Assembly: GCA_023430885.1 (NCBI GenBank)
Contig: JAEYYH010000032.1
Span: 19,279 to 83,278, forward strand
Direction: 5' to 3'
DNA length: 64,000 bases
Origin: Bacillota bacterium
Lineage (GTDB): Bacteria > Bacillota_I > Bacilli_A > RF39 > UBA660
Shown here: positions 4,807 to 56,365 of the stretch, one piece after another
Layout of the letters: each line of letters opens with the position of its first letter
Numbering within the stretch: position 1 is the first letter of the stretch
The notes under the pieces: generated by a model
Database searches by the model: none
What the model saw: only the letters and a program-made list of their open reading frames with translations
Told to the model about the DNA's origin: nothing
Made by a program: the position numbers and the translations under genes

Positions 4807-6324
4807 TTAATTATTAAGTGCTCTTAAAAAAGGATAACCATTATTTATAGTTGGGCTTATATTCCATATGTTTGTAAAATCCCAACCTATATAACTGTTT
4901 TTATTTTTAGCTTGAGTAGTTGTTAACCCTGCACCTAAATCAAAACTTTGATAAGGAATACCGGAACTTTCCATATCCCAATAAGAATTTGTTATTGTCG
5001 CACTATAATACCATCCAACAAGTCCTTCTTTAGCACCTGATGTATTTTGAATTACTTGACCAGTACTATAGCAATTTTCGACAGTTGCCATCCAAACGTA
5101 ACCAGCAAAACCACCTATGTGGCCGTAACTACTAGAGTTTATTACTGTTACATTAGCATACGAATTCCTTATAGTTTTATTGTTTCTTCCAACAAAGCCT
5201 CCGGTCATCATTGATGTTCCGCCTACATAAATATTTTCAACTTTACCTGTAGCATAAGACTCAGATATTGCCCCTTCGTTCTGCCCAATAAATCCTCCAA
5301 CATATTCATTAGAACCCTTTACATCGGCATTTATGACATATGATTTACTTATTTTACCAGATGATTCACCAATAAGTCCTCCTGTGTGGGCTGCTCCTCT
5401 AACAACTGGATTAATAATAGAACAGTTTTCTATTACTCCAGCACTACTTGTGTGTCTGCCCATTATTGTTCCTGTAATCCAATCTCCAGTTACATTTGCA
5501 TTTTCCAATACTATATTTTTGAAATCACCAGAGCCGGCAGTAAATAATCCTACACTATCACCAGTAGGTCTATTTATATATAAATTTTTTATACGAAAGT
5601 TGTTACCATTAAAATCACCAGAAAATTGATTTGATGATGTAATCCCACCAGTATCTAGAAAATTGCCTATTGGTTTCCAACCGGCACCAGTAGTCCAAAG
5701 AGCTTTATTTGCAGCAGAATTCAAATAACTTGCATTATCATTGAAATCTAAATTTCTCATTAATTCATAATTTGATGAACGCGTAGTTGAATTAGATTCA
5801 ATATATTTAAGTTGTTCTAAGTACCATATATCTAGATAACTATCGCCATCAGAATCTTTAAGATTATTTGCTACTTCTCCAGCTGGAGGCATAGGTGAAA
5901 AAAATCCATCCAAATTACAATCTTCTTTTGTTTTTGTCGTCAAAATTACACTATCGTCACCAAAAATTTTTTCAGCACAATATGTCCCATCATGAATGGC
6001 AATAGCTATTTCACCATCATTACGAATTATAACATAACCATAATCGGGATTCTTTCCAGAATAATCTAGTTTATTTAATGACGGTTCAAATACCTGCACT
6101 CCATTTACATAATTATAAGCCATACTATCTTTTGTTCCATCTAATGCATCTTTCGTATACCTTACTACTGCCGCATCAATTATAGTATGCGCTGTAACTT
6201 CAAATGCACCTTTTTTTGCTTGGGCTGTTATTTTTGAAACTGTTGGTATAGCTATTAAAACTATTACTCCTAATATTAAAATTACTGCTAAAAGTTCGAT
6301 TAATGTAAAACCGGCTTTTTTCAT
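4807..6324 (-). CDS. prepilin-type N-terminal domain protein with C-terminal GLUG-motif repeats
   Basis: MKKAGFTLIELLAVILILGVIVLIAIP prepilin motif; C-terminal half carries repeated GG(L/F)(I/V)G(E/Q/R)N...Y blocks (GGLIGESSG, GGFIGQNEG, GGFVGRNNK, GGFAGYVW) typical of the GLUG motif. Confidence 0.65.
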   Translation of the reverse strand: MKKAGFTLIELLAVILILGVIVLIAIPTVSKITAQAKKGAFEVTAHTIIDAAVVRYTKDALDGTKDSMAYNYVNGVQVFEPSLNKLDYSGKNPDYGYVIIRNDGEIAIAIHDGTYCAEKIFGDDSVILTTKTKEDCNLDGFFSPMPPAGEVANNLKDSDGDSYLDIWYLEQLKYIESNSTTRSSNYELMRNLDFNDNASYLNSAANKALWTTGAGWKPIGNFLDTGGITSSNQFSGDFNGNNFRIKNLYINRPTGDSVGLFTAGSGDFKNIVLENANVTGDWITGTIMGRHTSSAGVIENCSIINPVVRGAAHTGGLIGESSGKISKSYVINADVKGSNEYVGGFIGQNEGAISESYATGKVENIYVGGTSMMTGGFVGRNNKTIRNSYANVTVINSSSYGHIGGFAGYVWMATVENCYSTGQVIQNTSGAKEGLVGWYYSATITNSYWDMESSGIPYQSFDLGAGLTTTQAKNKNSYIGWDFTNIWNISPTINNGYPFLRALNN

Positions 6325-16854: not shown

Positions 16855-17511
16855 TTAACTTAAATTGTTTCTTAATTTTGTTAAAACTTTTTGTTCTTTT
16901 CTGGATACTTGAACCTGTGTCATGCCTAAATCGTTAGCTGTTTCTGTTTGCGTCTTATCATTAAAATATCTGTCTTTTAATAATTCAAGTTCAGCTGAAT
17001 CTAACTTTGTTAATTCTTGTTTTAAAGCAATTAAAGTATTAATATCTAAAATTCTATCAGGAATAGTCTCGTGAAGCGTTACTTCTTTTGAATCACTTGC
17101 AATAGGTTCATCAATACTTTTAACTTCCCTTTTACTATTTAAAGCTTCGTTAACTAATATTTCTGGTATCCCAAGAAACTGTGATAGTTCTAAAGATGTT
17201 GGCATCCTATATAGCTTCTGTGACAACATATTTGAAGCCTGCTCTATCTTAGCATTTAAAGACGAGATGTTCCTACTTACTTTAATTGATTTATCCTCTC
17301 TTATATATTTTTTCATTTCACCTAAAATATAAGTGTATGCATAAGTCGTAAACTTTATATTAAAACTTTCATCATAGTTATGATAAGCTTTCATAATTCC
17401 TATTACTCCCACTTGAAATAAGTCTTCTTTATTTTTATAATTACTAAAATAGTTAGTAATTGAATATATTAAATTTTGATTTTCTAGTATTATTTGCTCA
17501 ATTGGTTTCAT
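16855..17511 (-). CDS. sigma-70 family sigma factor of the SigF/SigG/SigB group
   Basis: 218 aa; region 2 (DLFQVGVIGIMKAYHNYD...FTTYAYTYILGEMKKYIRED..KVSR) and region 4 HTH (TQTETANDLGMTQVQVSRKEQK) closely match sporulation/stress sigma factors. Confidence 0.8.
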   Translation of the reverse strand: MKPIEQIILENQNLIYSITNYFSNYKNKEDLFQVGVIGIMKAYHNYDESFNIKFTTYAYTYILGEMKKYIREDKSIKVSRNISSLNAKIEQASNMLSQKLYRMPTSLELSQFLGIPEILVNEALNSKREVKSIDEPIASDSKEVTLHETIPDRILDINTLIALKQELTKLDSAELELLKDRYFNDKTQTETANDLGMTQVQVSRKEQKVLTKLRNNLS

Positions 17512-17522
17512 TTTTTATCTCC

Positions 17523-17864
17523 TTAAATATTAAATATATTTAATGCTGTTAATTCGTTATTCGTTATAGGAATGTAACTTTGCGTACTCCGAGCCAGCGC
17601 TCTTTTTACATTACCGTTTATATTACATATAATAGACTCTCCTTTGTTTTGCTTACATAATTTATAATTATATATTAATGAATTTATACCATTAATATCT
17701 ATTTCATTTACATTTTCTAAATTAAAAACAATATTTCTTATACCATTATCAAAAACCATTTCTGCAACTTCTTCGTATAATTTATTACAGGTATCACCAT
17801 TTAATTTTCCATCTAATCTAATAAATAAAATTCCTTTTATAAATTCCATTTCTATTCCAAGCAT
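17523..17864 (-). CDS. STAS-domain anti-sigma-factor antagonist (SpoIIAA/RsbV-like)
   Basis: 113 aa, STAS pattern, located 12 bp upstream of the sigma factor gene. Confidence 0.6.
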   Translation of the reverse strand: MLGIEMEFIKGILFIRLDGKLNGDTCNKLYEEVAEMVFDNGIRNIVFNLENVNEIDINGINSLIYNYKLCKQNKGESIICNINGNVKRALARSTQSYIPITNNELTALNIFNI

Positions 17865-17930
17865 CTAATCACCTTCCTATATAATTTAGCACATCTTTTT
17901 TAATTATTATTCACATTCGACAAAACTAGA

Positions 17931-19443: not shown

Positions 19444-21153
19444 TTATGATCCAGTAATAGCTAAAGTTACACGAAATGCATAATCTGCTGCTACTCCAGA
19501 TGAACCACTAAATGTAAAAATTCCTGCTCCTGCCCCTGCAGACCAATTACCACTTCTAATTACCCAAGGAAATCCATTATATGCAAAATGAGCATAATCA
19601 TGATACCAGGAACTCTCATATCTACTTGTTGCATCTGTATCAATTGTACTTTGAGCAAAACTTCCCATTTCTTTAGTTGCATCTCCTAAAGAACCTCTTG
19701 AATATGCGGTTATATCTTTCCAAGTTGTTCCATAATCATATAAATCAAAGTACTTACTTATAGGAAAAGCAATTCCTGTTGTAAGAGAGCCAGTAGTACC
19801 GTATAGACCATTAAAGCCTGAATTACTTGCATCACTATTTCCTGATAATGGAGCATTTGTTCCGGTGCTATCTTGAACTACTCCCATTACATACTCCCAA
19901 GCTCCACCAGCCATATCATATATTCCAGTAATATTACCTGTTGTACTAGCTATATATCCATTAGCTGTGTTATAAGCATTTTCACATCCGGCATAACCAG
20001 CTGTTGTTGATGATGTTGCAGGCTCAGTACTAGCTGCGCATCCTGTAATATAGTCACTACTATTATTGTAACGCATATTACTGTTTAGTCCATATATTGA
20101 ATGAGAAAGATACGCTACTGCACCCCACTCTATATTTTTCATAAGATGAGTATCAACTTTACTAGCTTCAATTCCATAAATATTACCATTACTTTCCATA
20201 TCTCTTATAGTTGTAAATATTTCTGATACATTCATATTTCTTAAACTTGCTATGTTTGGTTTAATTGTAGTTGTTGCTATATTCCCAGTAGTTTCAAATT
20301 TTCCTGCCCAAAATCCATTTAAATCTTCAGTACCAAATTTAAATGCTGGGTGTGTCAAATACTGACCAGTAGTAGTACCTGTTGATGTAGTAGTATTCTT
20401 ATTTTCAAATACAATATTAATTGTTTTAATATTACTGCTATTGGTTGCTGTTACATCAATATTTGTTCCATCATTAAATAATTCATATCGGTATCTAGGA
20501 ATCCATACCAAATAAGTTAATATATCATTTTCTGTAATTGTAGTACCACTTTTATAAGTTCCATCACCATTTATATAATTACTTCTGCTAGAAGATGTCA
20601 CAGTTACAGCATTAGCCCATCTCTTACTTGAATAGCTGTACCAGTTAGAATATATATCCGCTAGTGCTACAGTTCCGTCATCAGATATTAACACCGGTAT
20701 CATTCCTGTTTCTAGTTCTGGATCAGTGCCATTTAAAGTAGTATCTTTGTAAACAACAGGCGTTACTACCGAACCTTCTACTACTGTTATTTTATCTTCA
20801 GCAAATGTCTTAGTCGCAGTAAAAGTTCCATTAGTTAAATTTGCGGCTGTTTTACAATTACTATCGACATTTATTGTACCAGTAGTTGGCAATTTTCCCT
20901 TAACATTAAGTGAAGGAGATATATTTCCATCAGTAAATGTGTATGTTGTTGTAAGTTCTTCTTCTCTTAATAATTCTAGTTCACAAGCATTTTCAGCTGC
21001 TGTTAAAACATTTTCAACTGTTGTTGTAAATGCCCCTTTTTTACTAGTTTTAATAATATTATTCACAACGGGAACTGCTATTAGGGCAATTATTCCTAAT
21101 ATTAATATTACTGCTAATAATTCTATTAAAGTAAAACCTTTTTCTTTTATCAT
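19444..21153 (-). CDS. prepilin-type N-terminal domain protein with C-terminal FGE-sulfatase (SUMF1)-like domain
   Basis: MIKEKGFTLIELLAVILILGIIALIAVPVV prepilin motif; first ~125 aa paralogous to 4289..4669; C-terminal region contains GIYDMAGGAWEYVMG resembling the FGE-sulfatase signature G(L)(Y/F)DM(x)GNVWEW, and a terminal Gly/Ser/Ala-rich tail. Confidence 0.55.
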   Translation of the reverse strand: MIKEKGFTLIELLAVILILGIIALIAVPVVNNIIKTSKKGAFTTTVENVLTAAENACELELLREEELTTTYTFTDGNISPSLNVKGKLPTTGTINVDSNCKTAANLTNGTFTATKTFAEDKITVVEGSVVTPVVYKDTTLNGTDPELETGMIPVLISDDGTVALADIYSNWYSYSSKRWANAVTVTSSSRSNYINGDGTYKSGTTITENDILTYLVWIPRYRYELFNDGTNIDVTATNSSNIKTINIVFENKNTTTSTGTTTGQYLTHPAFKFGTEDLNGFWAGKFETTGNIATTTIKPNIASLRNMNVSEIFTTIRDMESNGNIYGIEASKVDTHLMKNIEWGAVAYLSHSIYGLNSNMRYNNSSDYITGCAASTEPATSSTTAGYAGCENAYNTANGYIASTTGNITGIYDMAGGAWEYVMGVVQDSTGTNAPLSGNSDASNSGFNGLYGTTGSLTTGIAFPISKYFDLYDYGTTWKDITAYSRGSLGDATKEMGSFAQSTIDTDATSRYESSWYHDYAHFAYNGFPWVIRSGNWSAGAGAGIFTFSGSSGVAADYAFRVTLAITGS

Positions 21154-34066: not shown

Positions 34067-34651
34067 CTAATTACTACTAATTTTTTTTCTTCTCTCGTCT
34101 TCTTTTTCTAGCATCGTTGAAAGTATTTCAGATCCTATAATGAAAAGCAAAGGAAGTATTATAAATAAATAAAATCCTATAGTTGTGCCAACAATTCGAT
34201 AAATTATTGAAAGTATAATTGATCTATAAATAACAACGCCATATATCTGGCTTTCAGAAATAGTAGGATCTTCAAATAAGTTTGCTAATCCTTTTGTTTG
34301 GAATAGATATTTTCCATCTTCATCAGTTTTAATACTAACAACTTCATGGGTAATAACTTTATCTTTGAAATCACCAGCTGTTCCTAGATAACTAACTGCA
34401 TCACCAACTTTAATTGTTGATGGATCAACTTCTTTTGAAATTAACACATCTCCAATCTTATACTTGGGCTCCATACTTCCTGAAATTACTGTAAACATTC
34501 TATAATTGAAAAAAGATATTTTATTGTCACTGAAGCGTTGCAAACATACAACAATTATAAATCCAACAAGTATTACAACAAACATTATTTGTGCTATAGT
34601 TGCGACAATTTTATATGCTTTGCTGTTTTTAATTTCCATTAATTTTTTCAT
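34067..34651 (-). CDS. sipW: signal peptidase I, archaeal/ER type (SipW-like)
   Basis: 194 aa; TM1, catalytic VISGSMEPKYKIGD (Ser) and ITHEVV (His), C-terminal second TM typical of SipW. Confidence 0.75.
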   Translation of the reverse strand: MKKLMEIKNSKAYKIVATIAQIMFVVILVGFIIVVCLQRFSDNKISFFNYRMFTVISGSMEPKYKIGDVLISKEVDPSTIKVGDAVSYLGTAGDFKDKVITHEVVSIKTDEDGKYLFQTKGLANLFEDPTISESQIYGVVIYRSIILSIIYRIVGTTIGFYLFIILPLLFIIGSEILSTMLEKEDERRKKISSN

Positions 34652-35810: not shown

Positions 35811-37340
35811 CTATACAGACTTTTTAATTCTTTCTAAGTATTCAATACATTCCTTCATATTGTCATCGCCAAATTCTTTTTTTAAATAGGCAATGAAAGG
35901 ATCTATTTCATCACGAATTAATAATATATTTAATTGATCAAACTTACGGAAAATTTTCTTAGCAATAAAGTAATCGATACCATCAACTTCTTTACCACCA
36001 CAAGCAACATAAACTGGTACAAACGTATTTAATTGTTTCATAATACGATTACCAAAAGCTACTCTGAAATGTTTGATAACATAATCATCCATTAATCTAA
36101 TTTTTTCTAAATTTTTATCAGAAACCTTTTTGTTTTCAACTGCTGCTGCAAACAAGGATTCAAGATAACTTGAATTAAGATCTATAGCATCTTGTTCTCT
36201 ACATTTAAAAGGCTCTATTTTGGTATTAATATCAATAGGCATTGCACGGTCATAAACTTTATCAGTAACCATAAATGTTGAATCATCATTATTAATTGTA
36301 CCAATATACCATAAGTTACCAGGCAATTTTAATTTTCCCTCTTTTATACGAACAGGGTCACTAGGCCATGAGTTAGTAACTAACTCAATAATCCATTCTT
36401 CCCTAGAAGGCATTTCTAGAATAGATAACATTTCAGCAAAATAATACTCAACACGAGCGATGTTCATTTCATCCAAAATGATTGTATGTACATCATCATC
36501 AAGTCCTGATATATATAATTCCGCTAATACATCAGTCTCATTAAACTTTTTTGTAAATTCATTGAAATATCCTAATAATTCAGTTTTATCACGCCAAGAA
36601 GGCTCTACTGATGCTATACAAGAATCTTTTTTTACAAACTTTCCCCAAGCATATGCAAGTGAAGTTTTACCTGTTCCTGATATACCTTGTAAAATTACTA
36701 GCTTACCGCAAGCTAAGCCTGCAAAGAACGCTCTTAAAAGTGAAGCATCATAATATAAATGTAACTGACTAGCAGAATAACATCTAAAATTATCTAACAT
36801 TTCATCTAATGTAAAATTATTACCATAATTTTTAACCTTAAGTGTCTTGAATTTTTGATCTATTTTATCAAGTTTAGGAAATCTAATGTCACCAACATTT
36901 TCCTGTTTTTTATCTTCTTCTTTAGGCTCTTCTTCTGGATTTTCTGCATCATTAGGATTTAATCCTAATTGAGAAACTTTCATAGCCATAATTTCATTTT
37001 TTTCTTTCATTAATTTCTTTACTTGGCTATCTAAATCAGCAATTTCGTCTAATAAGTCTTCTTGATTCAATTTATTTTTTCTAAATCTTATTAACTTTCT
37101 AAGACTAAATAAAATGATAAATACAATTAAACCCAATATAATAACTAGAGTGGCTATAACTGAACCAACTAGTAGCCACTCTGATCCTTTAAAACTATCT
37201 TGATAACTATTTATTATTTTCATATATTCTTTGTAGTTAATCATTTGGGTTAAGCCATTAACAAAACCTTTAATTATTAAAAGCACCCCATCAAAGAATA
37301 TTGAAATAAACTCGTAGAAAAATCTTAAAAAAGTATTCAT
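35811..37340 (-). CDS. membrane-anchored McrB-like (AAA_5 family) NTPase
   Basis: 509 aa; two N-terminal TM helices, coiled-coil/acidic linker, Walker A GISGTGKTS, Walker B IILDEMNIARVEYYF (McrB DEiNRa-like), GTINNDDSTF...DRAM sensor region. Confidence 0.6.
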   Translation of the reverse strand: MNTFLRFFYEFISIFFDGVLLIIKGFVNGLTQMINYKEYMKIINSYQDSFKGSEWLLVGSVIATLVIILGLIVFIILFSLRKLIRFRKNKLNQEDLLDEIADLDSQVKKLMKEKNEIMAMKVSQLGLNPNDAENPEEEPKEEDKKQENVGDIRFPKLDKIDQKFKTLKVKNYGNNFTLDEMLDNFRCYSASQLHLYYDASLLRAFFAGLACGKLVILQGISGTGKTSLAYAWGKFVKKDSCIASVEPSWRDKTELLGYFNEFTKKFNETDVLAELYISGLDDDVHTIILDEMNIARVEYYFAEMLSILEMPSREEWIIELVTNSWPSDPVRIKEGKLKLPGNLWYIGTINNDDSTFMVTDKVYDRAMPIDINTKIEPFKCREQDAIDLNSSYLESLFAAAVENKKVSDKNLEKIRLMDDYVIKHFRVAFGNRIMKQLNTFVPVYVACGGKEVDGIDYFIAKKIFRKFDQLNILLIRDEIDPFIAYLKKEFGDDNMKECIEYLERIKKSV

Positions 37341-39592
37341 TCTTGTTCCCCCCTGAAATCACCAATTTTGTCAACTATATCTTCATAAATAACATTATCC
37401 AAAAGTTCATCTGGAATATATGAAATCACACTTGCCATATTTGGTATTTTTTTATTAATAAATACATAATCAGCAATATATAAATCACCACGATTTTTTT
37501 CTTTAATTGTTGTTTCTTTATTAAATACTAAAGCAAATTTATAACCCATCTTTTTAATTCTCTTTAAAAATTGTTTGTTTATTAATAAGTCTTCAAATGT
37601 TGTTAAAATCAGAACATTATCTTTAGCATATTTGTCATCAATAACTCTTAATAACTTTTCAAACTTTTTCTCTTTAGCATATAAACTTTTAGGAATATAT
37701 AAAATATATTTTCTATTAAAATTAGCTGAAACCATATCTTTTATTAATTGCATTGATAATAAATTTAATAGTACTGATAACTTATCTTCAGCAACAACGC
37801 CTTCGGTATAAGTTTTATCAATAACATAATCACTATAAACTTTACTAAAAGAAATATTATGTTCAAGTTCTAATCCGTACATATCTTTCTTATTACTTAA
37901 TTTATTAAATTTTAAATTAAACATATTAGTTTCTAGTTTTTGTAAAAAATATCCAAATATATCATTATATTTTTTTTGGATCTGTCCAATTTTAGCAACT
38001 ATTTGTGCTTCTTTTTGAATATCCCAATCTTTATAAAATTTTGCTATCTCTTTTTTATAAAATTCATTTCTAACCTTAATTTCTTCTATAGAATCTTTAG
38101 CACTCTCTAAATTAGCAATTAATATAAAGATATTATTATAAGTATCCACAATTTCATTATATCTCTTGTTACTACCTTTATAATTACTAATTAGTTCGTT
38201 TGCAACTTTATTTATAACTTTTTTATTTTTTAAAACTGAACTTTTTCCTGTAGACTCGATATCTTTATCACCAAAGTAATTATAGTATTTAGCATTGATG
38301 TATGTATTAATAAATATATTTTTAACTGTTATTTCTTTAGTACGAATTTTTTCATCAACTAAGATATCTATTAACTCATTTATCTCTTCTTTTTTTATAA
38401 ACATTGATGTTTCAATAATATTTTTGTGATTACCTAGTTTACTCTTTATTGATTCTAAGTTTATTTTTGTTAGAGTTTCATTATCTTCAACTATTGGTTC
38501 TTCTTCTTTTTCAGAATTCAAATCAGCATTCTTTTTTTGTTTTTTATCTTTTTGCTCAGATACTTTCATTTCATTTCTAGCGATTTCTAGTAAAGTGTCG
38601 CCTATTTCAGATGCATCAACTGGAATAACTCTAAATAATGATGTTTTATCTAAATCGTCCTCAATATCTTCTTCTTCCTCTTTTTGTGGTGCAACTTTAT
38701 ATTTATCATCAACTTCGTTAGAATCAACTGAAATAACTCTAAAAATGGATGTTTTTTCTAATTCTTCTTCTTTATGAATTTCTTCTTCAGACTTTTGAAC
38801 TGAATGTATTAACTCATCTTCTTCTTTCTCAGAATTAGCGGATACAACTTTGAAAAGTGTATTTTCTTTTTGAGCTTCAATTTTCTTTTCTTCATATTTT
38901 TTAGCATGAGCTTTTTTATATTCTTCTAAACTTTGGATTTTACCACGATGTTTATTTATATATTTAATAACTTTTTTCCTAATATTCTTAAATAATATTC
39001 CGCCTTTTTTTACTAAAGATTCAAAGATCAAATACATATTTTCTTCTTTAATATCTTCACCTTTAGCTTTTTCTGCATCTATTTTATTCTTTTTGACTGC
39101 CATATTAAATAAGAATAAAGTAATAATAAGAGTTATCAAAACACCTGGATTAAATAATGTTTTTCTAAGAATACCAAAATTACCTAGTATTTTTACTACT
39201 TTACCTACAATTTGACTTTGATCTATTGGGTCATCTTTTGCATTATTAGCATCACCCTTAGTAATATAAGTCCCATTGTAAACTTCGATAATTCTGTGTG
39301 TTATATATTCTTTATCTAATCTATAAGTTACTATATCATCAAGTTTAACTTTTTGTGTTAGTTTTACAACTATCCAATCACCGGCATTAATTGTATCCTC
39401 CATACTTCCTGTTTGGACTTCAAATATAGAATATCCAAAAAAATCAGTATAATCATTACCAAGAAGTTTAGTTTGAACACCGGTATATATAGAGACAATT
39501 AAAATAACACCAAATATAAAAATCAATATATTTAATAAAAAATTAATAATTTTCTCAATAAAATTCATATTTTTTAAATTCATATTTATCAT
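37337..39592 (-). CDS. SipW-type signal peptidase domain fused to long cytoplasmic extension (tandem repeats and degenerate EAL-like C-terminal region)
   Basis: 751 aa; TM1, QTGSMEDTINAGDWIVVK (Ser) and ITHRIIEV (His) matching canonical SipW at 34067, TM2, then ~580 aa KE-rich region with three T(S/L)(I/L)F(R/K)V(I/V)... repeats; last ~200 aa align loosely to EAL domain blocks but lack DDFGTG. Confidence 0.55.
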   Translation of the reverse strand: MINMNLKNMNFIEKIINFLLNILIFIFGVILIVSIYTGVQTKLLGNDYTDFFGYSIFEVQTGSMEDTINAGDWIVVKLTQKVKLDDIVTYRLDKEYITHRIIEVYNGTYITKGDANNAKDDPIDQSQIVGKVVKILGNFGILRKTLFNPGVLITLIITLFLFNMAVKKNKIDAEKAKGEDIKEENMYLIFESLVKKGGILFKNIRKKVIKYINKHRGKIQSLEEYKKAHAKKYEEKKIEAQKENTLFKVVSANSEKEEDELIHSVQKSEEEIHKEEELEKTSIFRVISVDSNEVDDKYKVAPQKEEEEDIEDDLDKTSLFRVIPVDASEIGDTLLEIARNEMKVSEQKDKKQKKNADLNSEKEEEPIVEDNETLTKINLESIKSKLGNHKNIIETSMFIKKEEINELIDILVDEKIRTKEITVKNIFINTYINAKYYNYFGDKDIESTGKSSVLKNKKVINKVANELISNYKGSNKRYNEIVDTYNNIFILIANLESAKDSIEEIKVRNEFYKKEIAKFYKDWDIQKEAQIVAKIGQIQKKYNDIFGYFLQKLETNMFNLKFNKLSNKKDMYGLELEHNISFSKVYSDYVIDKTYTEGVVAEDKLSVLLNLLSMQLIKDMVSANFNRKYILYIPKSLYAKEKKFEKLLRVIDDKYAKDNVLILTTFEDLLINKQFLKRIKKMGYKFALVFNKETTIKEKNRGDLYIADYVFINKKIPNMASVISYIPDELLDNVIYEDIVDKIGDFRGEQE
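38590..38880 (-). repeat. three internal protein repeats (about 35 aa each) within the SipW-fusion gene
   Basis: TLFKVVSANSEKEEDE / TSIFRVISVDSNEVDD / TSLFRVIPVDASEIGD followed by acidic spacers. Confidence 0.5.
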
Positions 39593-47597: not shown

Positions 47598-48776
47598 TTA
47601 ATTATAACCCGATAAATCTTTTATGAAATTAATTGCAATAGTAATAGCAGCACCTTTTGAATATGTTTCTAAGCTATCTATATCTTGTCCTTCAATCCAA
47701 ACATAAGCTCTTACTTTTGTTATACCACTTGGAATTTGAAAGATTGGATTTGTAAATGTAGTAGTTGTCTTTTGCAAGGCAAAATGCTCTGTATCAAGTG
47801 GTATACCTGTACCTTCTTGTCCATTTGAATGTTGAAGATTTCTTCCTTCATTTATAATGGCATATGTTGGATTGTATGTACCATCCACCAAAGTAATATC
47901 GCTTTCTTTAGCTGTCTTAATAGATCCTTCAGAATGCGCTGTACTATTAGGTTCATAAATAACCATTTCGCAATTATTATTGCATACAATATTTTGAATA
48001 TTGTTAACACTTGATTTTAAAGGAACACTTCCTACTTTTATAAGACCTATTCTCATAGAATTCATTATTCCACTCATAGAATCAATAATATCTTCTTTTG
48101 TTGCTTCATCTGTGTCAGCATATTTATTATAATCAAAATCAATAGCAGTATCATCATCAAAATACAGATTATCGCTTAGTGGTGAACCACTAACATTTTT
48201 TAAAAAGATATCAAATGCAATGTAAACATTAGCAGCTGATGAGTTATTTTGATCAACTAATGTCGTATTTAATAATCGTTCACCTGGAACAATCTTTTTC
48301 TTATTTTTAACTATTTCTCCTACATAGACATCAAATTTATCACTATTAGAATTTGGAATTCCAATAGTTGAAACAGGCCATAAACCGGCTGAAGCCCACT
48401 GATTAGTGTTGGTTGGATATTTATTCTCTAAGTCTTTAATTACACTATCTAGAGATATCTCAACTGAATCCGAAAAGTCAATACCGTCAAGTGAAATAAA
48501 TAATCCACTGTTACTAGATACGGACATATCAAGAAATTTAACTTTAACATTTAAGGATGCAGATAACCAAGCGTATGAAGAAACTATTAACAAAATACCA
48601 GTAAAGAAAATAATAAATATTAATAATCTAGGATCTATTTTCTTTATTCTTATTCTTTGACCTTTTAGTATTTTTCTAACACTTTTCTTCTTTCCTTTAT
48701 TATTAATCTTTTTCTTGTTTTTAGAATTACTATTTTTCTTTACTTTTAAATTTTCTTTCGTATTTTGTACGGTCAT
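47598..48776 (-). CDS. secreted TasA-like paralog 1 (SipW-cognate signal SSYAWLSA)
   Basis: Start taken at second Met (GAGGTG RBS); very basic n-region, h-region, SYAWLSASLNVKVKF; divergent homolog of the three downstream paralogs, lacks the DUF5011 tail. Confidence 0.5.
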   Translation of the reverse strand: MTVQNTKENLKVKKNSNSKNKKKINNKGKKKSVRKILKGQRIRIKKIDPRLLIFIIFFTGILLIVSSYAWLSASLNVKVKFLDMSVSSNSGLFISLDGIDFSDSVEISLDSVIKDLENKYPTNTNQWASAGLWPVSTIGIPNSNSDKFDVYVGEIVKNKKKIVPGERLLNTTLVDQNNSSAANVYIAFDIFLKNVSGSPLSDNLYFDDDTAIDFDYNKYADTDEATKEDIIDSMSGIMNSMRIGLIKVGSVPLKSSVNNIQNIVCNNNCEMVIYEPNSTAHSEGSIKTAKESDITLVDGTYNPTYAIINEGRNLQHSNGQEGTGIPLDTEHFALQKTTTTFTNPIFQIPSGITKVRAYVWIEGQDIDSLETYSKGAAITIAINFIKDLSGYN

Positions 48777-48802
48777 AAAGCACCTCATTCAAAATATAAA
48801 TA

Positions 48803-48905: not shown

Positions 48906-50366
48906 TTATTTAACAATTACAGTTCTTGTTTTAGTGCCTACGTTTCCTGCTGCATCAGTTACTGTATATGTTATTGTATAAGTTCCTGCTTCTGCAGTAT
49001 TAACTGTACCTGTTATTGCGATATTTTCTGTAGCAATATCGCCATCTCTAGCATCCTTAGCAGTTGCTCCTGGTTCAACATAAGTTCCACCAACAGCTAA
49101 TGTCATAGGATTTGCTCCTTCTAATGAGATAACTGGTCTTTCAGTATCTGGAATAGTTGGTCCGTTATAATGGATATCATCCTCAGTATATCTTTCTTTA
49201 GTGAATCCAAAATTTACAGAAATTTTCTTACCAATTGAAGCAAAGTCATAGTTATCTATATCTTGTCCTTCAATATAAATATAAATTCTAATTTTTGTAA
49301 TACTATTTGGAGCTAAAGTCATAAATGTTGGACGAGCAGTTCCAGTATAACCTTTCATTGTATCAGTAAAATATGGATATGCTGTTAACTTAGCACTTGA
49401 TGTGTAAGTGTTATATTCAGCACCATCGTAAACATCTACATTGTCACCTGAATCTATATCAGTACTTACAGCATATGTTGGATATGCATGATCATCTGCA
49501 ACAGCACCACAGCCTCCTGCTGAAGGATATGATAAATCTAATGTAACGTCTAAACCAGTTCTTGCTTTACAAGAAGTAGTGTACCAACTAATTGCATTTG
49601 CAACATGATCTATATCATTTGGTTCCCAAATTTGAGCTGTTCTACAAATACCTGTTACACCATCAGCAATTGATGGTTTTGATTCAGCATTTGCATTACA
49701 ATTAATACCTGTAATCTTTGCTACATCAGTAGTAGTTCCTGCAACACGCCCTATTTGAGCGAATGCTACTCTTACAGAGTTTTCAATACCAGTGTTTTCA
49801 ACACCTGTAGCAGCCACTTTTACTGCAGAATCTGTAGTCAAATAAATTGCTTCTTCATCTAGTGGTTCTAAAGCTTCTAGATATTGTGTACCTGAGAAGT
49901 TTTTAACAAATAAATCAAATGCAACGTATCCATCTTGTTCAGCAGGTAAAGCTTCCTCACCTACTTTATAGTTTTTAACACGACTTGCCATAAGTCTGTA
50001 ACCACCAGGTGTTGTTGTTAAACTTGCTTTCTCAAACAATTGCATTCTTGAAGATTTAACATCCATAGTACCTATAGATGAAACTGGAAATAATCCTGCT
50101 CCACCCCAGTTATTAGTGTTTCCTTCATAAGAATTAGAATCTACGGTTGCTTGTGAAATTTGTACTGTTGTATCCCATGTTTGTCCATTTAAAGATAATA
50201 ACAAACTATCAGTTGAAGCTATTTCAACATCAAAACTTGATACATTAACAGTTCGCATACCAATAAACCATGCGTATGTTGAAACAGATAAAATTACAGC
50301 AGTTAAAGAAAAAATAAAAATAAGGTTTCTAATGCGTTTTCTACGCATTTTACTTTGTTTTGGCAT
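48906..50366 (-). CDS. secreted TasA-like paralog 2 with C-terminal DUF5011 Ig-like domain
   Basis: Start at MPKQSKMRRKR (RBS present; the longer listed ORF is conserved leader); signal LSVSTYAWFIGMRTVNVSSFDVEIAST; C-terminal PVISLEGANPMTLAVGGTYVEPGATAKDARDGD...GTYTITYTVTDAAGNVGTKTRTVIV. Confidence 0.55.
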   Translation of the reverse strand: MPKQSKMRRKRIRNLIFIFSLTAVILSVSTYAWFIGMRTVNVSSFDVEIASTDSLLLSLNGQTWDTTVQISQATVDSNSYEGNTNNWGGAGLFPVSSIGTMDVKSSRMQLFEKASLTTTPGGYRLMASRVKNYKVGEEALPAEQDGYVAFDLFVKNFSGTQYLEALEPLDEEAIYLTTDSAVKVAATGVENTGIENSVRVAFAQIGRVAGTTTDVAKITGINCNANAESKPSIADGVTGICRTAQIWEPNDIDHVANAISWYTTSCKARTGLDVTLDLSYPSAGGCGAVADDHAYPTYAVSTDIDSGDNVDVYDGAEYNTYTSSAKLTAYPYFTDTMKGYTGTARPTFMTLAPNSITKIRIYIYIEGQDIDNYDFASIGKKISVNFGFTKERYTEDDIHYNGPTIPDTERPVISLEGANPMTLAVGGTYVEPGATAKDARDGDIATENIAITGTVNTAEAGTYTITYTVTDAAGNVGTKTRTVIVK

Positions 50367-50385
50367 AAATACATCTCTCTCTCTA

Positions 50386-51078
50386 TTATCCAACAAATTC
50401 AGAATTAAAATCCATGTGAATTTTAATTTCTCCTCCAAGAATGTTATCAGTGCATTCTGGATCAGTTCCTTCTAACCATAAGACTATTGTATATTTGTTT
50501 TTATCACCAGGTTTAAAGTCAACTACATGTTCATGAGCAATAAGGGTATCCGTTTCAAAAGCAACCGTTTCTTTTTCTGGATTCCCGTTACTAGACGCCT
50601 TAGCGTAGGTAATATAATTACCGTTCTTATATACTCTAATTCTTACAGCATCGTCAAGATTTTTTATAACATCATCAATAATTATTTCAGACCAATAATC
50701 AGATGGAGTATCGCCTAGATTTTCAATATAAAAAGTGTAGGCAACGTAATTATCACCGTTGTGAGATCCGCCTTCAAAATTGTCAATGTCTTCTGGAAGC
50801 CACTTATAGGAAATATTATCAAAGCTTTCAACAATTGGTGCATATAGCTCTGTTCTAAATACTTTATAGTTAGAATCATCATAAATAACAATATTATTTT
50901 CTAAATATAAGTTCCTATCTAGTGTAATACTGAAATTACCATTGTTGTAAATAACCCTAACAACAATGTATAAGATAAGTAACAATAGTGTGAAGAAAAG
51001 TAATACTAATTTAACAATTTTCGTTATTTTTTTCTTATGTTTTCTTTTGCCAGCTCTAGCTATAATTTCATTATTCAT
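50386..51078 (-). CDS. secreted/membrane-anchored 230-aa protein co-transcribed with paralog 2
   Basis: Basic n-region, TM, beta-rich body; shares promoter/leader architecture with paralog 3. Confidence 0.4.
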   Translation of the reverse strand: MNNEIIARAGKRKHKKKITKIVKLVLLFFTLLLLILYIVVRVIYNNGNFSITLDRNLYLENNIVIYDDSNYKVFRTELYAPIVESFDNISYKWLPEDIDNFEGGSHNGDNYVAYTFYIENLGDTPSDYWSEIIIDDVIKNLDDAVRIRVYKNGNYITYAKASSNGNPEKETVAFETDTLIAHEHVVDFKPGDKNKYTIVLWLEGTDPECTDNILGGEIKIHMDFNSEFVG

Positions 51079-51149: not shown

Positions 51150-51186
51150 TACAATATTATTGTAACATAGTCTAAAACATAATTCA
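51150..51186 (-). promoter_or_regulatory. sigma-A type promoter (TTGAAT-17-TGtTACAAT)
   Basis: On minus strand: -35 at 51181..51186, extended -10 at 51158..51163 plus TG. Confidence 0.45.
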
Positions 51187-51220
51187 ACATTTTTTTCACT
51201 ACAAGTATTATTTAATTTAC

Positions 51221-51291: not shown

Positions 51292-52779
51292 TTATCCTGT
51301 TATTATAACTGTTCTAGTTTTAGTACCTACATTTCCAGCTGCATCAGTTACTGTATAAAGTATTTTATATGTTCCTGGTACTGCTGCATTTACTGTTCCT
51401 GTTTTAACAATACTTGTTGTTAAATTGCCATCTTTGTTGTCTGTTGCAGTTGCTCCTGCATCTGCATAATCGCCAGGAAGATCACTCTTAGGCTGAGTTA
51501 CTACACTATCACCAACTAATGTGATTACTGGTACAGTCTTATCTGCACTTGCAGTAGCATCAGGGCCTTCACCTTCGTTTAAATCTGGTCCATTATAATT
51601 GATATCATCTTCAGTATATCTTTCTTTAGTGAATCCAAATTTAACAGAAATCTTTCTACCAATTGAAGCAAAATCATAGTTATCTATATCTTGACCTTCA
51701 ATATAAATATAAACTCTAACTTTTGTGATACTATTTGGAGATAAAGTCATAAATGATGGACGACTTGTACCTGTTAATAATTTCATAGTATCTGTAAAGT
51801 ATGGGTAAGCTGTTAATAATGTTGAAGATGGAGTTCCAACAAAACTATTATATGTTCCACCATCATAAATATCAACATTGTTAGCAGAAGTTATATCATT
51901 ATTTATTGCATATGTTGGATATGCTATACCATTTGTTAAAACTCCGCAACTTCCAGCATAAGCACTGCTTAATGTAACATTATCACCATCTGGTGATGCT
52001 AATCTCTTTTTACAAGAAGTATTATACCAACTAATAGCATTTGCTACATGGTCAGTATCATTTGGTTCCCAAATTTGGGCTGTTCTACAAATACCTGTTA
52101 CTGCGCTATCACTAGTACAAGTAATACCTGTAATTGTTGATGCAGTAGTAGTCGTCCCTGCAACACGTCCTATTTGTGCGAAAGCCACCCTTACTGAATT
52201 TTCAATACCTGCTCCATCTACTCCACCGTTTAAACCAGCTTCTGCTACTGTAACTGCAGAATCATTAGTTAAATAAATTGCTTCTTCATCTAATGGTTCT
52301 AAAGCTGGAAGATATTGTGTACCTGAAAAGTTTTTAATGAATAAGTCGAATGCAACATATCCATCTTGTTCAGGTTTTCCATCATAGTTGTTAACACGAC
52401 TTGCCATAAGTCTATAACCACCAGGTGTAGAAGTTAAACTTGCTTTTTCGAATAGTTTCATTCTTGAAACAGTCGAGTCCATGGCACCTACTGAAGATAC
52501 TGGGAATAAACCAGCTCCACCCCAACTATTTGTGTTGCCTTCATATACAACAGCTGGATCATTAACAGTTCCTTGTGAAATGGCAACAGTTGTGTCCCAA
52601 GTTGAACCATTCAATGATAGTAATAAGCTGTCTGTAGAAGCTATTTCAACATCAAAGCTTGATACATTAACGGTTCTCATACCGATAAACCATGCATATG
52701 TTGAAACAGATAAAACAACAGCCGATAAAGAAAAAATAGCGATAAGATTTCTTAGGCGTTTTTTGTTTTGTTTTGGCAT
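51292..52779 (-). CDS. secreted TasA-like paralog 3 with C-terminal DUF5011 Ig-like domain
   Basis: 495 aa; MPKQNKKRLRNLIAIFSLSAVVLSVSTYAWFIGMRTVNVSSFDVEIAST; C-terminal PVITLVGDSVVTQ...GTYKILYTVTDAAGNVGTKTRTVII. Confidence 0.55.
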   Translation of the reverse strand: MPKQNKKRLRNLIAIFSLSAVVLSVSTYAWFIGMRTVNVSSFDVEIASTDSLLLSLNGSTWDTTVAISQGTVNDPAVVYEGNTNSWGGAGLFPVSSVGAMDSTVSRMKLFEKASLTSTPGGYRLMASRVNNYDGKPEQDGYVAFDLFIKNFSGTQYLPALEPLDEEAIYLTNDSAVTVAEAGLNGGVDGAGIENSVRVAFAQIGRVAGTTTTASTITGITCTSDSAVTGICRTAQIWEPNDTDHVANAISWYNTSCKKRLASPDGDNVTLSSAYAGSCGVLTNGIAYPTYAINNDITSANNVDIYDGGTYNSFVGTPSSTLLTAYPYFTDTMKLLTGTSRPSFMTLSPNSITKVRVYIYIEGQDIDNYDFASIGRKISVKFGFTKERYTEDDINYNGPDLNEGEGPDATASADKTVPVITLVGDSVVTQPKSDLPGDYADAGATATDNKDGNLTTSIVKTGTVNAAVPGTYKILYTVTDAAGNVGTKTRTVIITG

Positions 52780-52939
52780 AATTATTATCTCTCCTTCTTT
52801 TTTTATAAGTATAAAATTAAAAATTGGTATTTTTCTTAATTTTCCACTTATGTCTTACCAATAAAATAAACCTGTCATCTTTGTAATTTCACGATATACA
52901 TTTGAATAAATTCATATGTATATTTCGCTACCCTATACA

Positions 52940-53010
52940 ATTTATATTGTATCATAAGCAGGTAAATTGTCAATACAATTTATTTTTTTTGTCAAAAATT
53001 GTCATGTTGA
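52940..53010 (-). promoter_or_regulatory. promoter of paralog 3 (TTGACA-16-TGaTACAAT) preceded by tandem TTGACAA repeats
   Basis: Minus strand: catGACAAtttTTGACAAaaaaaataaattgtaTTGACAatttacctgcttaTGaTACAAT; -35 at 52968..52973, -10 at 52946..52951; leader about 160 nt. Confidence 0.5.
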
Positions 53011-53092
53011 ATGTACCGATTTTTAAATGTTTTTTGTGTAAAATATATCATTTTATAATATAAAAAATGCTTTATCTTTATATCATGAATAT

Positions 53093-53130
53093 AAAATAAA
53101 AAGATAGTAACTCTTTCGAGATACTATCTT
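53093..53130 (-). terminator. rho-independent terminator after paralog 4
   Basis: aagatagta-N12-tactatctt with T-tract on minus strand. Confidence 0.55.
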
Positions 53131-53167
53131 TAGGTTGTTTTATATTAAACTTTATTGTTTATTATAG

Positions 53168-54646
53168 TTATTGAACAGTTACTGTTCTAGTTACTTGATC
53201 AGCATAGTTACCAGCCCAGTCACTAACATTGTAAGTTACAGTATATACGCCTGCTTTACTTGTGTCTACTGGATTAATAACATGAATTTTTGCTGTCATG
53301 TTTGTATCTTCATTGTCTGTTGCTGTTGCTCCAGCATCCTCATAAGTACTTCCTAGATCAACTGTTATAGCACTATTACCATTTAATGTAATTACTGGTT
53401 TAACAGTATCTGTACTTGCATTTAATGGTGGATTTCCACTGTAAACATCAGATTCAGCATATCTTTCTTTAGTGAATCCAAATTTAACAGAAATCTTTTT
53501 ACCAATTGAAGCAAAATCATAGTTATCTACATCTTGTCCTTCAATATAAATATAAATTCTTACTTTTGTAATACTATTTGGAGATAAAGTCATAAATGTT
53601 GGTCTATTTGTTGATGTCTTCATCTTCATAGTATCAGTAAAATATGGGAATGCAGTTAAGTATGCACTACTTCCTGTAAAAGTATTATAATCTTCGCCAT
53701 CATAAATATTTACATTATTTGCAGAAGTAATAGCACTACCTATAGCATATGTATCATAAGCATTAGTATTTGTTACAGGTAAACAATTTCCTTCATAAGA
53801 TTCTGCTTTTGTAACATCACTTGTTTGTCCCTCTAAAACTGCTTTTCTTGTTTTACAAGAAGTTGTATACCAACTAATAGCATTTGCTACGTGTTTAGTA
53901 TCATTTGGTTCCCAGATTTGAGCTGTTCTACAAATACCTGTTACATCACTATCAACAGCTGGATTACAAGTAATTCCAGTAATTGTTGATGCATTAGTAG
54001 TAGTTCCTGCAACACGTCCTATTTGAGCGAAAGCTACTCTTACTGAGTTTTCAATTCCTGTTTCACCAACTCCACCAGTTTCTGCTACTGTTACTGCAGA
54101 ATCTGTAGTTAAGTAAATTGCTTCTTCATCTAATTCATTTAATGCTTTAATATATTGTGTACCTGAAAAATTCTTAATGAATAAGTCAAATGCAACATAT
54201 CCATCTTGTTCAGCAGTTAGTTTGCCTTCTCCATCTGTTTGATAATTATTAACACGACTTGCCATAAGTCTATATCCACCAGGTGTAGAAGTTAAACTTG
54301 CTTTTTCGAATAGTTTCATTCTTGAAGCTGTGTTATCCATAGCACCTATTGATGAAACTGGAATTAATCCGGCTCCACCCCAAGTGTTAGTGTTTCCTTC
54401 ATATACAACATCTGTATCATTAACGTTTGCTTGTGAAATATTTACTGTGGTATCCCATTTTTGACCATTAAGAGATAACAATAAACTATCAGTTGATGCT
54501 ATTTCAACATCAAAGCTAGAAACATTAACAGTTCGCATACCAATAAACCATGCATATGTTGAAACTGATAAAATTATAGCTGTTAAAGAAAAAATAACAA
54601 TAAGATTTCTAACGCGTTTTGAGCGTAGTTTCTTTAGTTTTGGCAT
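53168..54646 (-). CDS. secreted TasA-like paralog 4 with C-terminal DUF5011 Ig-like domain
   Basis: Start at MPKLKKLRSKR (RBS aggaagagag); VSTYAWFIGMRTVNVSSFDVEIAST; C-terminal PVITLNGNSAITVDLGSTYEDAGATATDNED...GVYTVTYNVSDWAGN. Confidence 0.55.
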   Translation of the reverse strand: MPKLKKLRSKRVRNLIVIFSLTAIILSVSTYAWFIGMRTVNVSSFDVEIASTDSLLLSLNGQKWDTTVNISQANVNDTDVVYEGNTNTWGGAGLIPVSSIGAMDNTASRMKLFEKASLTSTPGGYRLMASRVNNYQTDGEGKLTAEQDGYVAFDLFIKNFSGTQYIKALNELDEEAIYLTTDSAVTVAETGGVGETGIENSVRVAFAQIGRVAGTTTNASTITGITCNPAVDSDVTGICRTAQIWEPNDTKHVANAISWYTTSCKTRKAVLEGQTSDVTKAESYEGNCLPVTNTNAYDTYAIGSAITSANNVNIYDGEDYNTFTGSSAYLTAFPYFTDTMKMKTSTNRPTFMTLSPNSITKVRIYIYIEGQDVDNYDFASIGKKISVKFGFTKERYAESDVYSGNPPLNASTDTVKPVITLNGNSAITVDLGSTYEDAGATATDNEDTNMTAKIHVINPVDTSKAGVYTVTYNVSDWAGNYADQVTRTVTVQ

Positions 54647-55070
54647 AAATACATCTCTCTTCCTATTTTCGACTATTTTTACCATAAACATTTTATATAT
54701 GTTTATGGATCTTGCTTCTAACTATAAGACATGTTGTAGTTTAATTCTATTACCTATTTTAAGTTCTTCTAAATACTTTTGTATGACAGGTTTAATCAGT
54801 TCAAAAGAAATTATATCTTTTTCAAGAATCAATTATTAGAGGATTTGAAATAAGTAACTTAATTACGGCCTTCGTGAATTCTTTTTTCTTACAGTTTATT
54901 GACTATTTTTTAATATCACCAATAATTTTCGCAATTATTATTGATTGTAATAAAAAATTGTCACTATTATAAACAATACAAACGACAATAATATAGTCTC
55001 GTTATTCACGTTTTGCATGGTGACTTTTTATGTCACCAATCATAATATCTTTATCGTAGTATACATTCAC

Positions 55071-55135
55071 ATTTTATCACAAATAGGCAAGTTGTCAATA
55101 TGGTTTAACATTTTTTGTCAAAATTTGTCAAAGTA
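55071..55135 (-). promoter_or_regulatory. promoter of paralog 4 (TTGACA-17-TGaTAAAAT) preceded by tandem TTGACAA repeats; about 440-nt leader
   Basis: Minus strand: ctTTGACAAatttTGACAAaaaatgttaaaccataTTGACAacttgcctatttgTGaTAAAAT; -35 at 55094..55099, -10 at 55071..55076; the same architecture as 52940..53010. Confidence 0.5.
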
Positions 55136-55262: not shown

Positions 55263-56012
55263 TTATAAAAGACGAATTCTATCTGTATTATAAAATGATA
55301 TCCAATTAATTACAAGTTCTATGTAATTTTCTAAAGATATGATATCATTGTTATAGAGAGTTTCTTTCTTTAATATTGAATGAAAACTTTCCATTGGTGA
55401 ATCATCAATAGGAGTTCCTTTTCTGCTCATAGAGATTGTTATTCCATTAGATTCGCATATTTTTTTATATTGATAAGATGTATATTGAAATCCTTGATCA
55501 GAGTGGATTATCAAACCTTTTACATCTTGTCTTTTTTTTATTGCCTCATTCAAAGTATCTATAACTAATTTATTGTCATTTCTATTACTTATTTTATAGG
55601 AAACAACTTTTCTGTCATATAGATCTAAGATTGTAGATAAATAAGCTCGTTTATTTCCAAATATCAAGTAAGTAATATCAGTAGTCCATATTTTGTTAGA
55701 AGTTTCCACTTTGAATTTTCTATTAACTAAGTTTGGTTTAACGTTTTCTTCAATTCTTTTATAATTGAATGGTTTAATTCTTTTCATATAAATAGGTTTA
55801 ATATTATATTTTGACATCAATCGTCTAATCTTTTTGTGATTTATAATTACGCCATATTTTATTTTTAAGCCTTCCTCAATTCTTCTATATCCATAAGTCC
55901 ATTTGGATTCATCAAATATATTTTTAATCAATAAATAATCATAGTAATCATTATCTACTTTATATCTATATTTATAATAATTTTTAATACCTATATTTAA
56001 TACATCGCACAT
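55263..56012 (-). CDS. IS3 family transposase OrfB (DDE integrase core); coordinates from first Met, true frame extends upstream via frameshift
   Basis: 249 aa; rve/DDE core (IIHSDQGFQYTS...), typical of IS3 OrfB. Confidence 0.8.
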   Translation of the reverse strand: MCDVLNIGIKNYYKYRYKVDNDYYDYLLIKNIFDESKWTYGYRRIEEGLKIKYGVIINHKKIRRLMSKYNIKPIYMKRIKPFNYKRIEENVKPNLVNRKFKVETSNKIWTTDITYLIFGNKRAYLSTILDLYDRKVVSYKISNRNDNKLVIDTLNEAIKKRQDVKGLIIHSDQGFQYTSYQYKKICESNGITISMSRKGTPIDDSPMESFHSILKKETLYNNDIISLENYIELVINWISFYNTDRIRLL

Positions 56013-56053
56013 ATTAATTAATTTGTATCTATTTATATTTAAATTGATGAATG

Positions 56054-56365
56054 TTATCTTTTCCCTTGTCGGGATTCTTTGAGGAAGGCTTGGAAGTTTT
56101 TTAGTATTTCATATCTTTCTTTATAATCAATCTCCTCGTTTCCTTTAGGTCTTCCTTTTTTATTATTTAAAGTATTCCCTTTACGAATTTGATAAGCCCA
56201 CATCCTTATCGTATTATTTGATATTCCGTATTCTCGTTCTAATCCACCCGAAGAATAACCAGCATTTAACTTATTAACTATCTCCGCTCTTTTCTCTGGT
56301 GAATACTTTTGATATTTTTGTCCTTTTCTTGCCATAACTATCACTCCTTTATTTAATTTTAACAT
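56054..56365 (-). CDS. IS3 family transposase OrfA (HTH)
   Basis: 103 aa; MARKGQKYQKYSPEKRAEIVNKLNAGYSSGGLEREYGIS helix-turn-helix; ends just after slippery heptamer. Confidence 0.8.
   Translation of the reverse strand: MLKLNKGVIVMARKGQKYQKYSPEKRAEIVNKLNAGYSSGGLEREYGISNNTIRMWAYQIRKGNTLNNKKGRPKGNEEIDYKERYEILKNFQAFLKESRQGKR

Follow-up and report, generated by a model that had tools for sequence, protein, structure and literature searches.

The 64-kb window analysed here (contig JAEYYH010000032.1, positions 19,279 to 83,278) is a bacterial chromosome segment of 27.6% G+C from a Bacillota bacterium, with genes for GreA, trigger factor, a PBP5-type carboxypeptidase, and UvrA. All positions below refer to the whole window. 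It carries a locus of paralogous genes for predicted secreted surface proteins, all on the minus strand, and the present analysis concerns the promoters and the repeated boxes upstream of two of them, paralog 4 (53168..54646) and paralog 3 (51292..52779). The true start codon of paralog 4 is the ATG at 54646, preceded by GGAAGAGAG. The locus also includes an intact unit of the apparent ancestral type (48906..51078), in which a gene for a 230-aa protein (50386..51078) is separated by 19 nt from paralog 2 (48906..50366), as well as the more distant paralog 1 (47598..48788). The paralogs share an architecture consisting of an N-terminal basic/hydrophobic STYAWF signal/anchor, a beta-rich domain of ~400 aa, and a C-terminal PF16403 Ig-like domain.

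The promoter scan placed the -35 hexamer TTGACA of paralog 4 at 55098-55093 and its extended -10 element TGaTAAAAT at 55079-55071, whereas for paralog 3 the corresponding elements were TTGACA at 52973-52968 and TGaTACAAT at 52954-52946 (all on the minus strand, as are the boxes described below). Among the promoter-like sites between 45 and 57 kb, these two were the top scorers, with 11/12 hexamer matches and the TG extension in both. The first-pass annotation of this DNA had described a shared extended -10 promoter with a spacer of 16–17 bp; the shared form TTGACA-16 bp-TGnTAnAAT was recovered, including the perfect -35 hexamer, and the spacer was 16 bp in both promoters, with no 17-bp case. 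Judged from their sequences, both would qualify as sigma-A (sigma-70) extended -10 promoters, and such promoters were also kept in relatives. The upstream regions of paralogs 3 and 4 could be aligned, as had been proposed as a check, and the conserved islands of the alignment coincided with the boxes, the -35 and -10 elements, and a TGTATA motif at +1. A putative terminator (hairpin and T-run, 53092..53131), read from the sequence, follows paralog 4; therefore, paralog 3 probably forms a separate transcription unit. A third promoter of the family, TTGAAT-17-TGtTACAAT (51159..51187), has a weaker -35 hexamer and is predicted to drive the 230-aa gene and paralog 2.

Upstream of the paralog 4 promoter, the box TTTGACAAA occurs twice. 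The distal copy (55124..55132; plus strand TTTGTCAAA, with the core TGTCaAA) spans approximately -68 to -62, and the proximal copy (55114..55122) spans approximately -58 to -52 and starts 23 nt upstream of the -35 hexamer; both contain a perfect TTGACAA heptamer (55125-55131 and 55115-55121, respectively). Upstream of paralog 3, the proximal box is again TTTGACAAA (52988..52996, with TTGACAA at 52989-52995) and starts 22 nt upstream of -35, whereas the distal box is the imperfect ATGACAA (52999..53005). Box starts relative to the -35 hexamer are thus -22/-23 and -33. The heptamer pair has a 10-bp period and a 3-bp gap, and its opposite strand reads TGTCaAA-att-TGTCaAA, that is, two 7-bp boxes with 3 bp between them. 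The earlier description of two TTGACAA boxes 5 bp apart therefore holds for paralog 4 as far as two perfect copies are concerned, but the gap is 3 bp, and in paralog 3 only the proximal box is perfect.

This feature is real and non-random. The pattern TGACAA-N3-5-TGACAA was found at only two places in 64 kb, namely in the two promoters (as N4), against 0.04 expected, so that the phased pair is not a ubiquitous element of AT-rich intergenic DNA; ubiquity would have spoken against its significance. The lone heptamer TTGACAA was not enriched in the window (13 found, 15.9 expected), which indicates that the signal resides in the phasing of two copies and their constant spacing from -35, not in the word itself.

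A scan with one genome per species yielded 76 loci encoding homologues with 48–68% identity, from genome bins of uncultured Bacilli, “Mollicutes,” and Erysipelotrichia-like organisms, and 58 promoters outside the window were compared. These homologous promoters consist of TTGACAA, a spacer of 16–17 bp, TGnTAnAAT, and then GTATA at +1, and nearly all promoters of this type drive either a gene with the STYAWF segment or a gene of the 230-aa type. The exact TGACAA-N3-5-TGACAA pair occurred in 0/76 loci, and it was this absence that brought to light the CG form of the box used by the relatives. In 29/58 promoters, the 40 nt preceding -35 contained CGACA oriented as on the coding strand, compared with a background of 1.1%, whereas the opposite orientation occurred there in 0/58. 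Half of the 58 promoters carried TTCGACAA at phased offsets equal to those of the window boxes: box starts clustered at -12/-13, -22/-23 (15 cases), and -32/-33 from -35, and the proximal box of paralog 4 shares its offset with the TTCGACAA boxes of these 15 promoters. Box similarity peaked sharply at ±10 bp and also at +20 bp from each strong box, a weaker box lying exactly 10 bp away. The aligned boxes gave tTTCGACAAAa; read on the other strand, the core TTCGACA corresponds exactly to TGTCGAA, and the A/T-rich flank is conserved with it. The sequence around the boxes has diverged, and their CpG has been kept in genomes depleted of CpG (observed-to-expected ratio, O/E, 0.51–0.57; 0.51 in the window and 0.57 in the relatives L001-L076). 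Such depletion is a mutational bias that would erode boxes containing CpG.

Another 16/58 promoters had TGTCG(A/T) at a fixed spot within the -35/-10 spacer (TTGACAAtTTGTCGAAtTATGtTACAAT), and the upstream box and the spacer box were combined in only one of the 58. The spacer design presents a forward box resembling the Spo0A-binding site (0A box) within a 28-nt block that is near-invariant in ~15 loci; spacer boxes were recorded in L001, L003, L004, L009, L012, L015, L016, L025, L028, L040, L053, and L062. Many of the related genome bins (records L001, L004, L005, and others) bear the title ‘uncultured Muribaculaceae’, which looks like a mislabel, since both the genes they contain and their neighbours point to Bacilli.

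Five syntenic loci with 80–90% protein identity (L198-L201 and L192) allowed the boxes to be followed over shorter distances. The proximal box TTTGACAAAA was invariant before both paralogs (four relatives for paralog 4, five for paralog 3). The distal box of paralog 4 reads TTGACAA in the window and L200 and TCAACAA in L198, L199, and L201; that of paralog 3 reads ATGACAA or, in L201, GTGACAT. TCGACAA has two possible single-transition derivatives, TTGACAA and TCAACAA, which makes loss of the CpG in two different ways from a canonical ancestral box the simplest history. The window boxes are accordingly one-transition TGTCaAA variants without CpG, the T-to-C repaired, CpG-bearing counterpart of TTTGACAAA being TTCGACAAA. 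Between the window and L201, identity upstream of paralog 3 rises from ~50% to ~90% exactly at the start of the boxes. In L192, the 88-nt stretch running from the distal box to approximately +25 contains a single substitution, compared with ~14% in the flanks.

Taken together, the comparisons suggest that the TTTGACAAA repeats are weakened, low-affinity tandem binding sites for the sporulation regulator Spo0A; we put the probability of this reading at roughly 0.55. The 0A box has the 7-bp core TGTCGAA (PMC3485338, PMC2731898), and imperfect boxes have been accepted in many proven targets. A published site for the Spo0A dimer comprises two boxes 3 bp apart within a footprint of 25–30 bp, and pairs of TGTtGAA (the complement of TTCAACA) are footprinted imperfect Spo0A sites in phage Nf (PMC2731898). 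In the window, three boxes match the core at 6/7 positions (TGTCaAA) and the fourth at 5/7 (TGTCATg), and the tandem layout with the 3-bp gap is found in TGTCAAAattTGTCAAA at 55116-55132. The suggestion that the repeats serve a dimeric regulator is compatible with the 10-bp head-to-tail phasing and with the comparative data.

The genes of the window are consistent with such a regulator. The window encodes SpoVAC, SpoVAD, SpoVAE, SpoIIAA, and a SigF-like sigma factor, so that on genomic grounds the organism is an endospore former. Endospore formers carry spo0A, and the presence of Spo0A is likely for both reasons. A canonical TTTGTCGAA lies in intergenic DNA at 17916..17924 (minus strand), abutting the weak -35 of the operon of spoIIAA and the sigF-like gene (TGAATA-17-TAAATT). 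SpoIIAA is a canonical target of Spo0A, and its promoter in this genome thus carries the same motif, as a single site. The 0A consensus is reportedly TTTGTCRAA; of its six matches in the window, four are the spoIIAA site and the three strong paralog boxes. In the operon itself (16855..17864, minus strand), a short SigF-like sigma gene (218 aa) begins 11 nt past the end of spoIIAA. The 7-bp core TGTCGAA was found 10 times in the window against 1.96 expected, and the copy at 17916-17924 is the only truly intergenic one. The other nine are coding, mostly within V-E-K codons; the enrichment was therefore rejected as a regulatory signal, being mostly a coding artefact. The coding copies include a pair at 274-310 that had at first appeared intergenic.

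Several observations weigh against an assignment to Spo0A. G5 of TGTCGAA is contacted by the protein, and its change to A makes binding of Clostridioides difficile Spo0A ~10-fold weaker (PMC3485338); the window boxes lack this contacted G5 and the CpG. The core promoters are near-consensus and do not obviously need an activator. The upstream boxes are absent from the third family promoter, both in the window and in close relatives, and the distal box varies among the close relatives. The 58 promoters are homologous and not independent, and shared ancestry inflates both the counts and the binomial P. Taken on its own, the pattern TGTCGAAnnnTGTCGAA is not uncommon in the window when up to three mismatches are allowed (2 found against 2.7 expected), for which reason the case rests on the comparative data. 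No spo0A was detected in the window, in the 10 kb past its start, or in the fetched loci, the last being searched by tblastn with a Bacillus subtilis Spo0A query. Moreover, spoIIAA and the sigF-like gene have no spoIIAB between them, and the sporulation pathway may be reduced or eroding.

If the boxes are Spo0A sites, a dimer of phosphorylated Spo0A (Spo0A~P) would bind the two heptamers head-to-tail, from about -52 to -68, upstream of a near-consensus sigma-A promoter, and would link expression of the SipW-type secreted surface-protein paralogs with stationary phase and entry into sporulation. With the contacted CpG gone, only high levels of Spo0A~P would elicit a response from the boxes. Repression under such levels is slightly favoured over activation, since the core promoters need no activator and the spacer box, present in about one quarter of the homologous promoters, can only occlude RNA polymerase. 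Published cases point in both directions. In B. subtilis, the sinI promoter, which Spo0A activates, carries ATTCGACA in reverse orientation immediately before its -35, as read from a primer sequence (PMC7470987), whereas a consensus box 26–27 bp upstream of -35 represses the A2b promoter of phage phi29 and hardly affects A2b of Nf, the outcome depending on the side of the second box (PMC2731898).

The paralog promoters would thus most likely represent a new target set of the known regulator Spo0A, with no new mechanism involved. With the Spo0A sites of Bacillus and Clostridioides (the tandem boxes of abrB, A2c and A2b of phi29/Nf, and sinI) the window boxes share a 7-bp core of the 0A type (TGTCGAA in the relatives, but with one mismatch, TGTCaAA or TGTtGAA, here), the 3-bp gap, and the A/T flanks. 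They resemble phi29/Nf A2b in a box ~22–27 bp upstream of a strong sigma-A -35 hexamer and sinI in the reverse orientation of the box upstream of -35. They differ in lacking CpG and in their targets, a previously unlinked family of secreted proteins; in addition, the relatives often have the second, mutually exclusive placement in the -35/-10 spacer. A locus with SipW-type signal peptidases whose secreted substrates are apparently wired to Spo0A recalls tapA-sipW-tasA of B. subtilis and sipW-bsaA of Clostridium perfringens. In B. subtilis, however, the wiring of tapA-sipW-tasA to Spo0A is indirect, via SinI/SinR and AbrB, whereas the boxes described here are on the promoters of the structural genes themselves. 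A looser parallel is offered by the CtrA sites of Caulobacter pilA, where, according to PMC11264516, a developmental master response regulator tunes a surface-filament gene up and down through several upstream sites; the regulator, motif, and phylum are unrelated to those considered here, and the analogy is one of logic only. Were the assignment correct, a large unnamed family of secreted proteins would be under direct control of the master regulator of sporulation, and the window would illustrate how 0A boxes can decay when their CpG is lost. The two promoter designs, conserved across dozens of genomes, offer a testable handle on the timing of protein display.

Other explanations of the boxes were considered, and the strongest of these, although we regard it as unlikely, is that T(C/T)GACAA is the operator of another regulator, a response regulator or a helix-turn-helix (HTH) protein dedicated to the surface-protein locus, which would recognise either direct heptamer repeats upstream or a heptamer facing that of the -35 in an inverted pair (TTGACAAtTTGTCGAA). 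Such a protein would account for the tight link of the boxes with one family, whose 230-aa and STYAWF genes are driven by nearly all such promoters, for the spacer arrangement, which forms a 7-1-7 inverted repeat with the -35 heptamer and is atypical of head-to-tail Spo0A dimers, for the further box-like islands conserved at the nucleotide level in the leaders, and for the departure of the window boxes from the 0A core at the contacted base. However, the conserved core equals the 0A box and its flanks base for base, the 10-bp tandem phasing is the Spo0A layout, the same 9-mer stands at spoIIAA, and those proteins of the locus that were scanned showed no DNA-binding domain. A broader form of this idea is more doubtful still: the boxes would not be Spo0A sites but part of an undescribed multi-operator cassette travelling with the SipW-dependent surface-protein family (>2,500 members). 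The cassette would comprise the phased T(C/T)GACAA boxes or the spacer inverted pair, the invariant GTATA..GTAG at +1, and the leader islands, and its dedicated regulator would set which of the tandem paralogs is expressed in uncultured spore-forming Bacilli.

It is improbable that no regulator is involved and that the boxes are UP-element-like A/T-rich DNA or relic -35 duplicates acting as alternative promoters and kept by recent paralogy. The boxes do look like the TTGACAA heptamer of the -35 and have A-tracts after them, the lone heptamer is not enriched, and the whole 88-nt promoter block, not the boxes alone, is conserved among strains. On the other hand, the TTCGACAA of distant relatives keeps its CpG despite the depletion and resembles neither an UP element nor a -35 hexamer, the boxes obey a strict orientation and phasing, and conservation begins precisely at the boxes in the diverged L201. 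The proposal of the first-pass annotation that the extra repeats are alternative -35 elements is not supported, as the relatives' boxes make poorer -35 hexamers and no acceptable -10 element lies 16–18 bp from the upstream hexamers. An operator of CtsR, the class III heat-shock repressor, is highly improbable. Its tandem heptads, (A/G)GTCAAAnAn(A/G)GTCAAA, located near clp or chaperone promoters, resemble the plus-strand TGTCAAAattTGTCAAA in the direct heptad repeat, the 3-nt gap, and the GTCAAA core, but three mismatches are needed and matches at that level occur by chance (15 found, 14.3 expected). Besides, the relatives carry GTCGAA, usually as one strong box, and the targets are secreted surface proteins and not clp or chaperone genes; CtsR was therefore rejected. 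We give as little weight to sites for SpoIIID (consensus WWRRACARnY) that would switch the promoters off in the mother cell: sporulation genes are present and GACAA resembles the SpoIIID core, but a pyrimidine (C/T) is conserved before GACA where that consensus needs a purine, and neither the conserved upstream TT nor the 10-bp tandem phasing is a SpoIIID feature. Direct repeats of the OmpR/PhoB type (PhoP/WalR) were also rejected. The PhoP consensus of B. subtilis is TT(A/T/C)ACA-N5 with a period of ~11 bp, while the boxes have a 10-bp period and G at position 3, and the relatives have mostly a single strong TCGACA box.

Beyond the family, a metagenome scan for the whole promoter module gave 114 hits, nearly all unrelated, the only relative being L192. 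Four unrelated low-GC metagenome contigs (L084, L121, L124, and L193) have two or three copies of TTCGACAA repeating every 10 bp, ~21–24 nt upstream of a consensus -35 hexamer; the genes downstream of these other tandem-TTCGACAA promoters were diverse and uninformative.

Downstream of the -10 element, the initial transcribed region of paralog 4 holds the conserved motif TGTATACTACGATA (55052..55065, minus strand) at the predicted +1 (~55064); the start of paralog 3 is predicted at ~52938. In its general form, (T)GTATA(T/C)TA..G(A)TAG, the motif is invariant at 55052-55065 and 52925-52939 (minus strand) and in most family promoters of L001-L076. It starts ~7 nt past -10, with a sharp peak of offsets, and was present at 64/123 extended -10 hits compared with a background of 6%; no conserved RNA pairing of this motif was found.

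The leader of paralog 4, estimated earlier at about 440 nt, measures ~418 nt from the predicted +1 to the ATG at 54646. Most of it is a pseudogene (54690..55018, minus strand), a decayed copy of the 230-aa gene with 65% identity over 232 nt to 50683-50455; the intact gene still precedes paralog 2. The pseudogene also has short matches of 80–88% identity to 230-type genes in >20 loci, retains peptide remnants (for example, VLWLEGTDPEC degraded to VL*LEARS), and is common to the close relatives, with differing frameshifts. The 166-nt leader of paralog 3 corresponds to a 230-type leader with the 230-aa gene deleted. From the pseudogene and the gene-deleted leader, we infer an ancestral unit of boxes, promoter, 230-aa gene, STYAWF gene, and terminator that subsequently underwent tandem duplication. 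The leader had also been thought long enough to host an RNA regulatory element. An Rfam scan of the leaders gave no match at the gathering threshold and nothing credible at E<=10, RNAalifold found 0 conserved pairs in 22 ‘230-type’ and 6 long related leaders, and the folding z-scores were modest (-2.8 and -2.5). A cis-regulatory leader RNA (riboswitch, T-box, or attenuator) was accordingly rejected, the leader being mostly pseudogene. Leader islands of paralog 4 (54958-54997 and 54765-54799) and paralog 3 (52855-52904) are 90–100% identical to L201, with flanks at 45–70%. The island 54958-54997 is conserved at the nucleotide level despite the frameshifts and holds TTGTCGT ... GTGACAA, an inverted box-like pair.

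An IS3-family insertion element (55263..56365, minus strand; orfA 56054..56365, orfB 55263..56012) has inserted into the PBP5 terminator, ~85 nt further upstream than the distal box, and is absent from the equivalent position in L198, L199, and L201. The same species is present in ENA and Logan metagenome assemblies, and its Logan contigs end near this element.

The family of the paralog proteins is large (>2,500 hits), and its members bear no annotation beyond “DUF5011 domain-containing” or hypothetical; it is found in uncultured Bacilli of guts and digesters. The ~400-aa beta-rich domain matched no known family. In an AF2 model of a paralog (predicted local distance difference test, pLDDT, 74.9), the predicted structure gave PDB matches to the C-terminal Ig-like domain only, and a TasA-like identity was rejected, with neither a sequence nor a fold match. 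The window encodes two homologues of SipW/archaeal-type signal peptidase I, at 34067..34651 and in the N-terminus of 37337..39592 (minus strand), the latter peptidase being fused to a 600-aa extension; both share a cluster with STYAWF proteins and several large family-less proteins. Elsewhere in the window, three open reading frames with a prepilin-type N-terminal methylation motif (type IV pilin-like) were observed at 4289..4669, 4807..6324, and 19444..21153 (minus strand), two of which are unusually long (505 and 569 aa).

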